Part shown: positions 1 through 4,631 of the stretch, piece by piece
Layout: every line of letters begins with the position of its first letter
Numbering within the stretch: the first letter of the stretch is position 1
IMG/VR virus record: IMGVR_UViG_2675903650_000013
Coordinates: 1 to 4,631 of that record
Source of the DNA: a virus
Taxonomy: Duplodnaviria; Heunggongvirae; Uroviricota; Caudoviricetes
Strand: one strand, 5' to 3'
DNA: 4,631 nucleotides
Position numbers and translations under genes: made by a program
The notes under the pieces: model-generated
The model's database searches: none
What the model saw: the letters and a program-made list of their open reading frames with translations, nothing else
What the model was told of the DNA's origin: nothing

Positions 1-126
1 CGACATAATCTGAATCTGAGACAACATCTGACAAGGCTGGGACGGAAGTCACTGTCGTTCTCAAAATCGGTGGAGCTGCATGACAAGGTCATCGGGCATT
101 ATCTGAACATAAAACACTATCAGTAA
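1..126 (+). CDS. 3' end of an upstream gene (5' part outside window), hypothetical protein
   Basis: Frame 1 is the only frame open from the window edge: 41 sense codons ([41 protein letters not shown]) ending at TAA 124-126. All three minus-strand frames contain stops here. G+C is intermediate, unlike the AT-rich gene downstream. No motif recognised; about a 1-in-7 chance of such an open stretch at random. Confidence 0.3.
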
Positions 127-164
127 GTTGGAGTCATTACCTTATTTGTTTATTAGGATTTTTG

Positions 165-2297
165 ATGGAACTGTTACAGGAACACGGGGCGATACTTAAA
201 GTTGTAATCATGCCTACTACTGGGGAACAAACCATAATCCAAGGTTTCGATACTGGCCTCCTCAACCCAGAGATATCCAACATTCTTTTTTTATTGGCCA
301 AAACACCAAAAGAAATTAGTGAGATTTTTGTCAATGAAAATGATAACTTTCAGCCTACTCTAAGCGGGCTAAATCCTATTTTTTTAATATCTAAAGAAAA
401 TCTTGAAAAAATACCAAATATTTATCAAACGCCATTTTACTTAATTTTTTGTGCTAAAGAAGATTTTTCGTATGTTTGTGCTTTAAAAAAACATTTTGCT
501 ATACCACCTATAATTTGTTGCAATTCTAAACGCGCTGATCTACCACTTAATAAGATTAATAGTATATACTCATTTGATAAGGTGCTCTTCTCTCGGTTGA
601 AATTCATTGAGGATAAAATAAGAAAAAATCACAGTGAAAAGAAAATATCAACGAAGTTGAAGCGAAGAGGGGCTTTATTTAATAAATCACCTTGGAGATC
701 GACGCTTAACAATTCAACACTACCCAATGAGTTGTTAATTGAATCACTTGGCTATATGCTATCTCCACCAAAAAGAATTAAAGATGGTAGTAGCAAAAGA
801 GAGTTTATAGAAATAATACTTCATAGCGTTGATGCATACACCGAATGTTTAAAGGAATTAGATATACCACTTCCAACGGAAGTCTTACTTTTTGCTCCGG
901 GTATGCACTCTTTTTTATATGATAAAAATAATGACTTTTATGAGTTAATAACGGAAAATTTATCCACAATTGAGAAAAAATTCCTTATTGATGGAGTGTT
1001 GAGGAATCCTGGCTATTCTGGAATTAGACTTGATATAAATTCAGATAGAAAAGAACTTTTTAAAAGTCCTGCTTTCCGTTACCTCACCTCACTAAGACGC
1101 GCTGAAATGCGATTAACAACAGCTGCGATTACTTTATTTAGCATAAATAAAAAAATCCCAGCAATAAGATTGCCAAATGCAATAAATCATTACTCCAATT
1201 ATTTGAAAAATCTTGAAGATCTTGCAACTTCTTCTGGGATAAATAGTGAAGCATTCATCACTAAATCTAAAGCATTCAATACTGTTATTCGAAGAGCCCT
1301 TGGTTGCAAGTTGAGAACATATATAAGTAAAAACTATAGCGATTTGTCCTTTGTTTGTGATGTACCATTGGATTGGATTAGGTTTAATAACATACCTATA
1401 ATGTTCAGTCATGAGATATCAAGAATAAATGCTACGCCTGGTAACGTTCTTCTACAGAGCGCCTCTGCTTTTCCGCGCGTTTTAGTAAAAGCATCTGAGT
1501 TGAGAAAGGTTTTAGTTATACGTTCTTTTGAGCCTGATGATCACTTAAAGTTCATATTAGAGAACGCAATTGAGATATTTAAAAAACAGATGCCAGATCT
1601 TGATTGCGAGATTATTGATGTTAGATCGAAAGCTGAGTTTATTGATGCTCTAAATCAATATCAAGGTCATGTTCTTGTTATGGATTGTCATGGAAACCAT
1701 GATGGCAATGGGAGTCATGGATGGTTAATAATAGGTGAGGATAAAGTGGACACTTGGAGTTTGAGAAAAATAGCAAGAATTCCTCCTATCGTAATTCTGA
1801 GTGCATGTTTAACATCTGCCCTAAGCGGTTCTCATGCCTCTGTTGCTAATGGCTTCGTTATAAGTGGTGCATTAAGTGTCATCGGAACATTACTGCCAGT
1901 AAATGCGATAGACTCTGCTGTGTTTGTAAGTCGGTTGATCTACCGGTTTTACGAGTTTCCTTCGACGCTATCTACAAATTTTACACATGTTAATGTAAGG
2001 CTTTTTCTTTCTGTTTTTCTTAGGATGTCCTATGCAAGCGATTTAATAAGAGGATTTTTATCTGAAGATTTGATACCGAATAATTCATGGAGGAAAGATG
2101 CAGTTGATATTAACATGTATATAAACATGCTTCACCATGATTGGTATGATTATGTAATTAACAAATTGACGATGTTAACGGGGCTCACGAAAAAAGATGT
2201 ACTTGATTTTATCGATAGAAAATTATTCATAACCGAAACTATGTGCTATAGCCAAATTGGATTTCCAGATGCAATCACAATTAGTCTTAAAGATTGA
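165..2297 (+). CDS. Large CHAT-domain (caspase-like cysteine protease) protein with an uncharacterised N-terminal region of about 440 aa; candidate defence or abortive-infection effector
   Basis: Uninterrupted 2.1-kb ORF. The ORF track starts at TTG 162, but ATG 165 is preceded by AGGA (155-158) at 6-nt spacing, so 165 is the likely start. Stop TGA at 2295-2297. C-terminal motifs read directly: HVLVMDCHGNHDGNGSHGW (His-Gly at 1689-1694 or 1716-1721), IVILSACLTS (Cys codon 1806-1808), SGALSVIGTLLPVNAIDSAVFVSRLIYRFY. This order and spacing match the CHAT / peptidase C14-like fold. No Walker A (GxxxxGK[ST]) anywhere in the protein. Confidence 0.85.
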   Translation: MELLQEHGAILKVVIMPTTGEQTIIQGFDTGLLNPEISNILFLLAKTPKEISEIFVNENDNFQPTLSGLNPIFLISKENLEKIPNIYQTPFYLIFCAKEDFSYVCALKKHFAIPPIICCNSKRADLPLNKINSIYSFDKVLFSRLKFIEDKIRKNHSEKKISTKLKRRGALFNKSPWRSTLNNSTLPNELLIESLGYMLSPPKRIKDGSSKREFIEIILHSVDAYTECLKELDIPLPTEVLLFAPGMHSFLYDKNNDFYELITENLSTIEKKFLIDGVLRNPGYSGIRLDINSDRKELFKSPAFRYLTSLRRAEMRLTTAAITLFSINKKIPAIRLPNAINHYSNYLKNLEDLATSSGINSEAFITKSKAFNTVIRRALGCKLRTYISKNYSDLSFVCDVPLDWIRFNNIPIMFSHEISRINATPGNVLLQSASAFPRVLVKASELRKVLVIRSFEPDDHLKFILENAIEIFKKQMPDLDCEIIDVRSKAEFIDALNQYQGHVLVMDCHGNHDGNGSHGWLIIGEDKVDTWSLRKIARIPPIVILSACLTSALSGSHASVANGFVISGALSVIGTLLPVNAIDSAVFVSRLIYRFYEFPSTLSTNFTHVNVRLFLSVFLRMSYASDLIRGFLSEDLIPNNSWRKDAVDINMYINMLHHDWYDYVINKLTMLTGLTKKDVLDFIDRKLFITETMCYSQIGFPDAITISLKD
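1494..1991 (+). other. CHAT / caspase-like protease domain (approximate boundaries) within CDS 165..2297
   Basis: Region spanning the His-Gly motif (1689-1721), the LSAC catalytic-Cys motif (1797-1808) and the downstream small-residue helix plus FY motif. Boundaries are estimated by eye from motif positions, not from a profile alignment. Confidence 0.65.
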
Positions 2298-2328
2298 CAA
2301 CTGTATGTAATAAATATGGCATACTTCC

Positions 2329-2369
2329 GGCACAGAGCGAATATAACAGATCAGGTTTAGCTCTGTGCC
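2329..2369. repeat. Perfect 10-bp inverted repeat (GGCACAGAGC ... GCTCTGTGCC) with 21-nt spacer, in the spacer between convergent genes; possible bidirectional terminator or protein-binding / junction site
   Basis: Arms at 2329-2338 and 2360-2369 are exact reverse complements. The spacer contains a GATC. No U-tract follows on either strand, so it is not a canonical intrinsic terminator. Confidence 0.4.
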
Positions 2370-2404
2370 ATAGGTGTACCAACTCTCATCTGAGCTAATG
2401 CTCG

Positions 2405-2599
2405 TTACTCAATAACTCCCGCAAATTTGTAAATCTTGCGTGATGCCCATTTATTTGGGCATGATTTAATATCAGGATCTGGAAAGTCTGGCCTGTATTT
2501 CTGGCCAGTTCTCCTGTTTACGCTGTTCCAGCGAAGAACGGTCGATACTGAAACGCCACAGAAGTCGGCGACTTGTTTAGTTGTCATTAAGTTGTTCAT
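2405..2599 (-). CDS. Small HTH DNA-binding protein, excisionase / AlpA-like (64 aa)
   Basis: The track ORF 2405..2665 has a non-ATG start. The first ATG (2597-2599, MNNLMTTKQV...) is preceded by a strong SD, AGGAGGTG (complement of 2605-2612). The motif TTKQVADFCGVSVSTVLRW followed by FPDP...KW resembles the lambda Xis / AlpA-type winged-helix pattern. The start overlaps the upstream stop as TAATG. Confidence 0.7.
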   Translation of the reverse strand: MNNLMTTKQVADFCGVSVSTVLRWNSVNRRTGQKYRPDFPDPDIKSCPNKWASRKIYKFAGVIE

Positions 2600-3120
2600 T
2601 ACTTCACCTCCTGCGGTGGCTCCGGTAGCGGCATCCAGTGGGTTACTTTCGATAACCAACACCAAACATACTGTTTATCGTCCGGCATTCGCTCACTACA
2701 GCTTATCCAACCATCCGGAGTTACCGGAGAGTTGCCCGACAGCTCGTTCAACTTGTAAGTCTGGCTTACAGGTTCGGCACCATGAAGCATGGCGGCGCGG
2801 CAGGCGTTCCAGCCTTCATCAAAGCCGACTATGCCATTATTTAAAGACGGACGAACATCTGGCACCATCGGCACTGGCTTGGCTATATATAGCGGCTGAA
2901 CATACCAGCCCTTTGATAACCAACTGTCAGCAATGTTTTTACTCCGTGTTATTGCCGGAATACCTAAGCCATTGTCTGAATGCAGCCATGCCACCGGTTC
3001 TGCTTCCAGCGATACCAAAGCAATTTCATAAGCACGGCGCTCAATATTGTCTTGCACATCCAGACTGCCTATGCGCTCTTTGATTTCTTTAATCAGTTCT
3101 TTGTCGGTAAATGTGGTCAT
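2599..3120 (-). CDS. Phage protein with C-terminal DUF551-like domain (173 aa)
   Basis: ATG at 3118-3120, stop TAA at 2599-2601. The C-terminus DGWISCSERMPDDKQYVWCWLSKVTHWMPLPEPP matches the DUF551-type motif (GWIS..E.LP ... THWMPLPEPP) common in enterobacterial prophage early regions. The start overlaps the upstream stop as TAATG. GGAGG lies 10 nt upstream. Confidence 0.8.
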   Translation of the reverse strand: MTTFTDKELIKEIKERIGSLDVQDNIERRAYEIALVSLEAEPVAWLHSDNGLGIPAITRSKNIADSWLSKGWYVQPLYIAKPVPMVPDVRPSLNNGIVGFDEGWNACRAAMLHGAEPVSQTYKLNELSGNSPVTPDGWISCSERMPDDKQYVWCWLSKVTHWMPLPEPPQEVK

Positions 3121-3482
3121 TATGCCCCTGCCTCCGGTGCCTTTGGTATTACTGCCCAGTGAGTGATATTGACGTTTTCAAGATCCCCGACCTGAAATGT
3201 CCACTGCCATTCTCCGGTTTCCTTTTGTCCCCAGGTGTACCAGAGAGAACGCCAGCCAATCAGCCAGCCTTCTCCGTTAGCATCAAATAACAGAACACTT
3301 TCATTTGCAGGTGGCAATTCAGCTGACACTGGTATTATTTTGTTTTCCAGTGCCGCACATTTAGCTTCAAGCGCGTCGAATGTACGTACTAGGTACTCAG
3401 CATTTGTTTCGTTCACTTTCAGATCTCGCGGTACACATTTCCCGCGAAGAAACCCTTCCATTTCGAAAACATTCATGCGCAT
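3120..3482 (-). CDS. Phage protein, DUF551-like paralog (120 aa), YfdS-like by position and length
   Basis: ATG at 3480-3482 with GGAG 8 nt upstream (complement of 3491-3494). The C-terminus EGWLIGW...NITHWAVIPKAPE parallels the neighbouring gene's GW...THW..P motif. The start region ATGCGCATGA overlaps the stop of the HD gene. The K-12 symbol yfdS is suspected from memory of a 120-aa CPS-53 protein but is not verified. Confidence 0.8.
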   Translation of the reverse strand: MRMNVFEMEGFLRGKCVPRDLKVNETNAEYLVRTFDALEAKCAALENKIIPVSAELPPANESVLLFDANGEGWLIGWRSLWYTWGQKETGEWQWTFQVGDLENVNITHWAVIPKAPEAGA

Positions 3483-4009
3483 TTGCGTAACTCCGATAAC
3501 TCGTTAAAACGTTCCATAAACATCCCGTAGGCATGACCTGGCGACAGTGGAATAACTTTGAACATCTCTGTTGCCGGGATACCTTCCAATACAGGCCAGA
3601 AAGAGCCATCATCAAGTCCGAGATCGCGGCGTTCGGTTGCCAGCATAATGAGATCGGCATATTTCACGGGCGTACTCATAACTGGGGGTAATCCGTATTT
3701 CTCACGGATTACGGAGTCTATTTTTTCTTCCATTTGTTTATAGTCAGGAAGAAGGCGTTTCAGTGGTGCGGGAATGTCCTGGCAATACGCTTCTGTTGCA
3801 TCATGCATTAACGCTTCAAAAGCAAATTCCTGCGGCACCAGCTGGCTGCAAAGAACCGCATGTTGGGCGACGCTGTAGAAGTGCGAAAGATGACCGGCAA
3901 AGCGACAGATATTTGAAAGGGAAACCGCGATATCGTTAATATCGATGTCGTCTTTATTTATCCTGTCATAATAAAAATGCTTCCCGGAAAAAGTTTTAAT
4001 AAATGACAT
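3473..4009 (-). CDS. yfdR: HD-domain phosphohydrolase, prophage YfdR-like (178 aa)
   Basis: The track ORF starts at GTG 4034-4036. The ATG at 4007-4009 (MSFIKTFSGKHFYY...) has GGAG 6 nt upstream (GGAGAACAAAATG), so 4009 is the likely start. HD metal-binding pattern: H in VAQHAVL, HD in EALMHDATEAY, downstream D. Length and start match my recollection of E. coli K-12 CPS-53 YfdR; confirm by BLAST. Confidence 0.8.
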   Translation of the reverse strand: MSFIKTFSGKHFYYDRINKDDIDINDIAVSLSNICRFAGHLSHFYSVAQHAVLCSQLVPQEFAFEALMHDATEAYCQDIPAPLKRLLPDYKQMEEKIDSVIREKYGLPPVMSTPVKYADLIMLATERRDLGLDDGSFWPVLEGIPATEMFKVIPLSPGHAYGMFMERFNELSELRKCA

Positions 4010-4102
4010 TTTGTTCTCCACGTATATGCGCTGCACCGCGCTGAATTCTGGTAAAAAGAATCCCTCACCATCCGGCGATTATTGAGTAAATTACGTTTCC
4101 AT

Positions 4103-4124
4103 AAATGCCCCCGCAGGGGCATTT
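4103..4124. other. GC-rich hairpin: 9-bp stem AAATGCCCC / GGGGCATTT, 4-nt loop, in the 127-bp intergenic region; possible weak terminator, RNA stability element or processing site
   Basis: Arms 4103-4111 and 4116-4124 are perfect reverse complements. It begins 12 nt downstream of the stop of the minus-strand ORF 4137..4595. No U-tract follows on either strand. Confidence 0.4.
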
Positions 4125-4136
4125 GCAGTAATGAAA

Positions 4137-4595
4137 TCAGGCGGTGAAAGTACCAATAAAGGTTTCTACTTTGCTGTCCTTGAATTTCTCAACAAGCAGA
4201 TCACGAAATTCGTTAGCCATTTCTTCCTGCACCGCCTCCAGCTGTATAATGCGCAGAACCAGTACCGGACGATCGCCAGTGATAATGCTGAGGCGTAATT
4301 TAAACGGACGTTCTTTCAGACCTTCAAACGGAATGCATTTAAATTCAAATGCCACTGGCATAATGTCTTTGGTCTTCGCTTCGACAGACTCCATCAGGGA
4401 GCGTTTGCCGCTGAAGTCATTATCTTCAAAATCAGCGGTCTGGTTTGCTTCAATCGTGATTTTACGGACCGCCGCAGCCGCTTTTGTTGCCTGAATGGTG
4501 TCACCATTAGCATCAAAGCCCACAAGGTAGTCGGCCCAGTCTTCAATCCATTCTGCCAGTGATTTCTGGGAGTTACGCTCGCCATTAACAGACAA
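4137..4595 (-). CDS. Hypothetical prophage protein (up to 152 aa); start codon ambiguous, possibly TTG-initiated or an N-terminally disrupted remnant
   Basis: The translation looks protein-like throughout (e.g. ...[45 protein letters not shown]...). The frame opens just after an in-frame TGA (4608-4610). The first possible start is TTG 4593-4595 with no SD; the first ATG is 4392-4394, also without SD. No domain recognised. Confidence 0.45.
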
Positions 4596-4631
4596 CAGAG
4601 CAGAGTGTCACGAACGGTGCAATAGTGATCC

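Follow-up and report, generated by a model that had tools for sequence, protein, structure and literature searches.

What is an AT-rich gene with a CHAT domain doing among the conserved genes of a phage, and does its base composition tell us how it came to be there? Both questions are raised by positions 1 to 4,631 of IMG/VR virus record IMGVR_UViG_2675903650_000013 (Caudoviricetes), a stretch of 4,631 nucleotides (nt) that was analysed over its whole length and that we call the window. We conclude, with a probability of about 0.9, that the AT-rich block in the window is bovA, the gene of the anti-phage system Borvo, and that it is accessory cargo carried between the int and xis genes of an Escherichia coli lambdoid prophage. 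As a defence gene bovA is of an already catalogued kind, in that Borvo is known; its position, its composition and the damage it has suffered are what we describe here. Coordinates are collected in Table 1.

The AT-rich gene encodes BovA

The AT-rich block contains one long open reading frame (ORF), which RefSeq annotates as a CHAT domain-containing protein. Its product matches the PADLOC model for BovA (PDLC03831) from end to end: residues 4–709 align with positions 3–715 of a 720-position profile, with an E-value of 2.6e-240 and a score of 797.8 bits. The Pfam CHAT match, at residues 489–593, is weak but above the gathering score, and it spans a predicted catalytic pair: His509 (1689–1691), in the motif DCHG, and Cys548 (1806–1808), in the motif LSAC. 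Both motifs are kept without exception by the 26 aligned homologues, the most distant of which has 31% identity, and the segment around the cysteine aligns with the Cys motif of Csx29 chains in the PDB; His509 is the putative catalytic histidine, on the strength of its motif. An AlphaFold model built on the homologue alignment is confident (pLDDT, the predicted local distance difference test, 85.1; pTM, the predicted template modelling score, 0.87), and it predicts for BovA a caspase-like fold resembling those of Csx29, separase and the gingipains. What we looked for in a member of Borvo was therefore found: a full-length profile match, a single gene with a C-terminal CHAT domain, and the catalytic His and Cys. 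When the PDB sequences were searched with the family profile, no Borvo structure was retrieved, and the marginal match to Csx29 (E 0.007) stood alone.

We place the start of translation at ATG165, in line with where the homologues start; Met1 is nearly invariant. A start that yields a 729-residue protein, annotated in phage Ayreon and in PHROG, was rejected: the homologues begin at ATG165, and it is ATG165 that an AGGA site precedes. A strict scan for sigma-70 promoters found no site within the native int-bovA spacer, and across the window such matches were no commoner than in shuffled sequences (7 versus 9.7). By eye, the spacer holds a perfect TATAAT with a weak -35 element, plus a TTGCTA-N18-TATAAC candidate.

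Several points weigh against our assignment of the block to a working Borvo system. That the gene is the same as the Borvo gene that was tested, from E. coli 403116, is something we infer from the family model and from near-clonality. An intact ORF is no proof of activity, and other lineages hold frameshifted or IS600-disrupted copies. In the lineage of the window, bovA is flanked by the insertion element IS1 (see below) and may be poorly expressed or silent. Finally, the sensing and cleavage steps that we propose below for BovA rest on inference.

An exchangeable slot between int and xis

Phages cdtI and Ayreon and E. coli KC-Dl-1 share one gene order: a plus-strand int, a plus-strand bovA and a minus-strand xis, followed by the early-left operon. 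The carrier of the window is a lambdoid prophage of the cdtI/Ayreon/CPS-53 type, integrated in E. coli next to yjjG. Sister phages in which int and xis are 92–97% identical hold five different occupants in the slot between these two genes, BovA included; the other four are DSR1, a dGTPase, gp29 of phage 2H10 and a 517-residue ORF of Stx2c_JNE090279 (Table 1). The initial annotation had presented the CHAT gene as horizontally acquired cargo and had proposed a comparison of syntenic prophages as a check: that comparison shows that bovA is not a conserved core gene, and it positions both junctions of the insert. On the right, prophages with other cargo become homologous again from 2322 (517-residue gene), 2355 (dGTPase), 2357 (DSR1) or 2369 (2H10 gp29). 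On the left, homology ends near the int stop codon, at points that range from 12 nt upstream of it to 30 nt downstream. In IS1-free prophages the native left junction is ~81–123 nt upstream of the equivalent of window position 142, and so lies beyond the IS1; the exchangeable cassette measures ~2.3 kb.

The distribution of bovA points the same way. Of 5426 complete E. coli genomes, 32 have the gene, always on the chromosome, as a single copy and with an identity of 99.4% or more. The xis segment next to it is found in 543 of the 5426, mostly at 90–95% identity, and bovA is absent from ~94% of the genomes that have this segment. Given this rarity relative to xis, and the exchange of slot occupants, bovA is accessory, and its description as horizontally exchanged cargo is upheld. 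That bovA is much less diverged than the backbone fits a recent spread by recombination between phages, as judged from these identities.

The same data bear on a different reading of the CHAT protein, namely that it is a protease with a phage function (morphogenesis, lysis or repressor cleavage), conserved for its part in the life cycle. Phages do encode proteases, and the phages that carry bovA include plaque-forming or inducible ones (Ayreon, cdtI). Against this reading, bovA is missing from a large share of the genomes with this xis, and in sister phages DSR1 or a dGTPase takes its place. The gene is not part of the structural or lysis modules, and its transcription runs against that of the early-left operon; a defence-system model matches it from end to end, and distant homologues occur in chromosomal contigs of many genera. 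We give a phage-function protease next to no credence, and retain the reading of bovA as exchanged defence cargo.

Prophage and satellite defence hotspots of P2 and P4 are reportedly the subject of work by Rousset et al. in 2022. The int-xis slot resembles those hotspots, and the morons of lambdoid phages, in being a fixed position with alternative defence genes (Borvo, DSR1, dGTPase). Its cargo is mostly AT-rich and has its own upstream region. The slot differs in lying between the convergent int and xis of cdtI/2H10/Stx2c-type lambdoid phages. For 2H10 gp29 and the 517-residue ORF of Stx2c_JNE090279 there was no Pfam or PADLOC match, and the only PHROGs that they hit are of unknown function; by position, both are candidates for new defence genes. 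It is through such guilt by association that this compact slot could be of practical use. As a tentative proposal, one that we would sooner bet against than on, the int-xis slot of cdtI/2H10/Stx2c-type prophages might be an undescribed hotspot of defence exchange, with gp29 and the 517-residue ORF as new anti-phage genes; a shallow literature search found no paper that describes the slot.

In phage cdtI (L001), the cdtABC genes (705–2805) are ~0.9 kb upstream of int and 2.2 kb upstream of bovA. Virulence and defence cargo therefore share one end of that prophage.

Two composition boundaries of different origin

By per-feature counts, bovA has a G+C content of 34.2% (40, 35 and 28% at codon positions 1, 2 and 3, the last, GC3, being 27.6%). 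The minus-strand prophage genes to its right have 46.8% taken together and 42.6–49.2% each; as one block, 2298–4631 has 46.6%, and the richest 200-nt window in the sliding-window profile reaches 54.5%. The gene thus lies 12.5 points below the adjacent prophage genes (two-proportion z = 8.4), and a three-segment model of the sequence is preferred to a single segment by 42 log-likelihood units, with change points at 97 and 2317. The sliding-window check that had been suggested for the compositional island therefore finds a significant discontinuity, although the original figures were too extreme: 28–32% G+C had been claimed for the CHAT gene, of which the 60-nt lines span 23–48%, with just 46% of them in the claimed interval. 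Likewise, the minus-strand flanking genes are indeed richer than the CHAT gene, but fall short of the 47–63% attributed to them. There are 7-nt A/T runs at 286–292 (T7), 379–385 (T7), 485–491 (A7) and 1149–1155 (A7); the first had been located exactly, and the second and fourth, given as 381–387 and 1148–1154, were misplaced by 1–2 nt.

Might this shift have nothing to do with bovA in particular, and reflect either prophage against chromosome or the ordinary variation from gene to gene in a mosaic phage? Lambdoid phages are known mosaics, and the prophage backbone (45–49% G+C) is itself poorer than the chromosomal neighbours rsmC, holD, rimI and yjjG (52–58%). Nevertheless, the 12.5-point step sets bovA well below that backbone, similarly low values (31–36.5% G+C) are seen in four of the five alternative cassettes, and the idea is largely refuted by the coincidence of change point 2317 with the breakpoints of a replaceable cassette. 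We rate it very improbable; the shift is better described as a property of the exchanged cargo.

It had also been claimed that the transitions fall almost exactly at the gene boundaries. This is so on the right: the best change point, 2317, is 20 nt past the bovA stop codon (2297) and matches the outermost homology breakpoint relative to related prophages (2322–2369). The left transition, which had been put at about 127–160, is not the native flank of bovA, because it is there that the right inverted repeat of IS1 ends. In IS1-free relatives, every match to the window begins only at 142. Two GenBank E. coli assemblies (L004 and L005) are 100% identical to the window over both aligned blocks, and L005 gives the complete order: an intact int (7873–9090), a complete IS1 (InsAB, 9265–9962) and then bovA. 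In L005, the 9-bp sequence that follows IS1 in the window also directly precedes the left end of the element, and it is single-copy in phage cdtI, which is uninterrupted. We conclude that IS1 arrived later, by simple insertion at a point 23 nt upstream of ATG165 and outside the cargo cassette, and that it parts bovA from its native upstream spacer in this lineage. The IS1 prompted us to consider Shigella as the source; records of this exact protein bear E. coli names only. The lesson is a general one: in a short window, a composition boundary can be the end of an insertion element and not a cargo junction.

Low G+C content is a trait of the family

The initial annotation had taken the low G+C content as the mark of a recent acquisition, of the kind frequently silenced by H-NS. 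We compared BovA homologues with their flanks at 25 loci (Pseudomonas, Stutzerimonas, Stenotrophomonas, Herbaspirillum, Acidovorax, Janthinobacterium, Thermomonas, Dyella, Aliivibrio, a Verrucomicrobiales genome and viral contigs). In all 25 the gene was below its flanks, by 1–19 points, in hosts with flanks of ~36–68% G+C; across these loci the G+C content of the gene (32–60%) tracks host composition. Low relative G+C content is thus a trait of this mobile gene throughout the family and offers no clock for its arrival; for the same reason, it is no sign of a recent low-G+C donor. As a mark of recent acquisition it also fails within the slot, where the alternative occupant DSR1 has 52% G+C. 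Better evidence for recent spread is the contrast, at the sequence level, between bovA (identity of at least 99.4%) and its backbone (mostly 90–95%).

We also have to weigh a version of events in which the block came recently from a low-G+C donor, has not yet ameliorated and is kept silent by H-NS. The A+T content of bovA, 65.8%, is well above that of the chromosomal neighbours (42–48%), as the composition of an H-NS target should be. Together with the low GC3, the gene has 11.4 rare codons per 100 (AGA, AGG, ATA, CTA, CGA, CCC and GGA were counted), versus 0.4–6.6 per 100 in neighbouring prophage genes and nearby chromosomal genes. The near-identity of all E. coli copies of bovA is in keeping with a recent import, as is the landing of IS1 in the AT-rich bovA leader; IS1 is reported to prefer AT-rich targets. 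On the other hand, the homologues in Pseudomonas, Stenotrophomonas, Acidovorax, Janthinobacterium and other hosts, at 35–60% G+C, are below their flanks too. The closest relatives from a protein search (54–85% identity) are, where a source is named, all from Enterobacterales, which are not low-G+C hosts; a contig search gave distant homologues only (29–43% identity), in chromosomal contigs of many genera. The high-affinity H-NS motif TCGATAAATT is not enriched: there are 11 matches where 8.9 would be expected, and 11 or more occur in 59 of 200 shuffles. Furthermore, published work uses Borvo to defend E. coli from a plasmid that carries it with its native promoter, which argues against complete silencing by H-NS, at least in that context. 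In our literature searches there was nothing specific on H-NS control of defence genes. On balance we think a recent, H-NS-silenced import unlikely, and favour exchanged prophage cargo from a family of genes that are poor in G+C relative to their surroundings.

A proposed mode of action

A listing in PMC10952713 traces Borvo to Millman et al. 2022 and classes it among CHAT protease systems. In cells with Borvo of E. coli 403116, the DNA polymerase of phage SECphi4 is toxic when expressed alone (Stokar-Avihail et al., bioRxiv 10.1101/2022.08.27.505566). The same study describes an abortive-infection signature, namely collapse or arrest of Borvo cultures at high multiplicity of infection and survival at low, and reports that missense changes in the polymerase proofreading cleft allow T5, SECphi4 and SECphi18 to escape. 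By analogy with the 403116 system, the window allele may likewise cause abortive infection upon encountering a phage DNA polymerase. We envisage a process in which the N-terminal ~440 residues of BovA would sense the phage polymerase itself or something that its activity produces; sensing would switch on the C-terminal CHAT protease, which in turn would cleave one or more host proteins, such that growth stops before phage progeny can form. The prophage would benefit in that its lysogen is shielded from unrelated phages. Our literature searches yielded nothing specific on the mechanism of Borvo.

Relationship to other CHAT proteases

The window gene resembles Borvo in being a single E. coli gene of ~710 codons, with a C-terminal CHAT domain and a full-length PADLOC match. 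No difference was detected at the protein level, and the window lineage differs in the IS1 upstream of the start codon. The resemblance to Csx29, the TPR-CHAT protein of type III-E CRISPR systems (Craspase), is of another order: identity is 12–14%, BovA has no Pfam TPR match, and membership in Csx29 was rejected on a score of 14 bits against a cut-off of 300 for NCBIfam NF041237. Neither Cas7-11, Csx30 nor a CRISPR array is found in the vicinity, and cas genes are absent from the annotated 14.6-kb contexts and from the gene table of the 22-kb loci. BovA is a stand-alone protein with phage DNA polymerase as its reported trigger, whereas the Csx29 of Craspase responds to target RNA. Other caspase-like proteases of clan CD, that is, separase, the gingipains and SAVED-CHAT, have about 10–14% identity to BovA; these have other reported regulators and biological roles.

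In itself, this identification has little discovery value: bovA is catalogued, and AT-rich defence cargo is to be expected in prophages. It does supply the correct name, Borvo BovA, in place of "CHAT domain protein" or "hypothetical", for a prophage family that includes cdtI and Ayreon. Its most useful yield is a pair of unannotated slot occupants, together with the recurrent lesions of bovA.

Recurrent lesions of bovA

In E. coli O121:H19 strains (e.g., 2014C-4423; L051, 2501–4632), a 1-nt deletion splits bovA into ORFs of 260 and 396 residues. IS600 is in or beside bovA in two O121 strains, and IS1414 is nearby in NRZ14408. Recurrent damage at bovA by IS1, IS600 and frameshift could reflect selection against a costly abortive-infection gene. 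Natural variants of these three types (IS1 upstream, frameshift, IS600) should be useful for asking what Borvo costs its host.

Other features of the window

Table 1. Features of the window and occupants of the int-xis slot. Positions are those of the window unless a phage or locus is named.
Feature	Position	Strand	Evidence or remarks
IS1, 3' end	1–141	+	Last InsB codons, stop TAA 124–126; right terminal inverted repeat GTTGGAGTCATTACC at 127–141
IS1 target-site duplication, 9 bp, TTATTTGTT	142–150	.	In AT-rich bovA leader, 14 nt before ATG
Probable ribosome-binding site, AGGA	155–158	+	6 nt upstream of ATG165; retained downstream of IS1; read from sequence
bovA, 710-residue BovA of single-gene Borvo system, intact ORF	165–2297	+	Full-length PADLOC BovA match
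CHAT protease domain core (caspase-like, clan CD), residues 489–593	1629–1943	+	Pfam
Imperfect 25-nt inverted repeat, core GGCACAGAGC/GCTCTGTGCC; hairpin between convergent bovA and xis	2317–2381	.	Repeat search and folding
Right junction zone of swappable cassette	2322–2369	.	BLAST breakpoints in window coordinates, and alignment
xis, 64-residue excisionase, last gene of leftward early operon; conserved right flank	2405–2599	-	PHROG 1553 excisionase, E 2.6e-35
DUF551 gene	2599–3120	-	Conserved prophage backbone, 45–49% G+C; Pfam, annotation of cdtI (L001) and L002
120-residue DUF551-like gene	3120–3482	-	Conserved prophage backbone
yfdR, HD-domain 5'-deoxynucleotidase	about 3473–4009	-	Conserved prophage backbone
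yfdQ/DUF2303, 3' part	4137–4595	-	Conserved prophage backbone
Probable start of second insertion element, interrupting yfdQ	4606–4631	.	Relatives without the insertion stop matching at 4605
Slot occupant: BovA, 710 residues	cdtI, Ayreon, window	+	34% G+C
Slot occupant: gp29, 239 residues, no known function	Phage 2H10 (L003, 4035–4754)	+	31% G+C; PHROG 8440
Slot occupant: 517-residue ORF, no known function	Stx2c_JNE090279 (L047, 2046–3599)	-	33% G+C; PHROG 13820
Slot occupant: DSR1, 1275 residues	Stx2c_JNE082796	+	52% G+C; PADLOC E 0
Slot occupant: dGTPase, 408 residues	Stx2c_EH0430	-	36.5% G+C; E 6e-105

The hairpin between the convergent bovA and xis sits at the right edge of the cassette and at the G+C change point. 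It folds with -33.5 and -33.8 kcal/mol (z of -3.4 and -4.1), and none of 200 shuffles was as stable; the repeat is partly conserved in Stx2c phages with other cargo. It is probably a two-way terminator or an RNA-processing site, and possibly the terminator of the early-left operon. The gene beyond it, xis, is annotated as an excisionase in phages cdtI and 2H10.

At the other end of the window, L004 and L005 continue to match through 4631, and IS21-type genes come next in L004, at 14627–16428. The last 26 nt may accordingly belong to an IS21-family element, the istA/istB genes of which start ~60 nt beyond in L004; the terminus of the element was not located. Many draft contigs that encode exactly this BovA protein are 4.4–4.9 kb long, and most of those listed start inside IS1. 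This suggests that the window is a contig whose two ends fall in repeated elements, IS1 on the left and the probable second insertion element on the right, which is what one would expect of a contig from short reads.

The DUF551 gene of the window lacks 99 nt, in frame, at 2653–2656, such that its product has 173 residues versus 206 elsewhere. The 99 nt are present in every relative that we examined, including assemblies that are otherwise 100% identical to the window; the gap reflects either the genuine loss of one repeat unit or a collapse in assembly.

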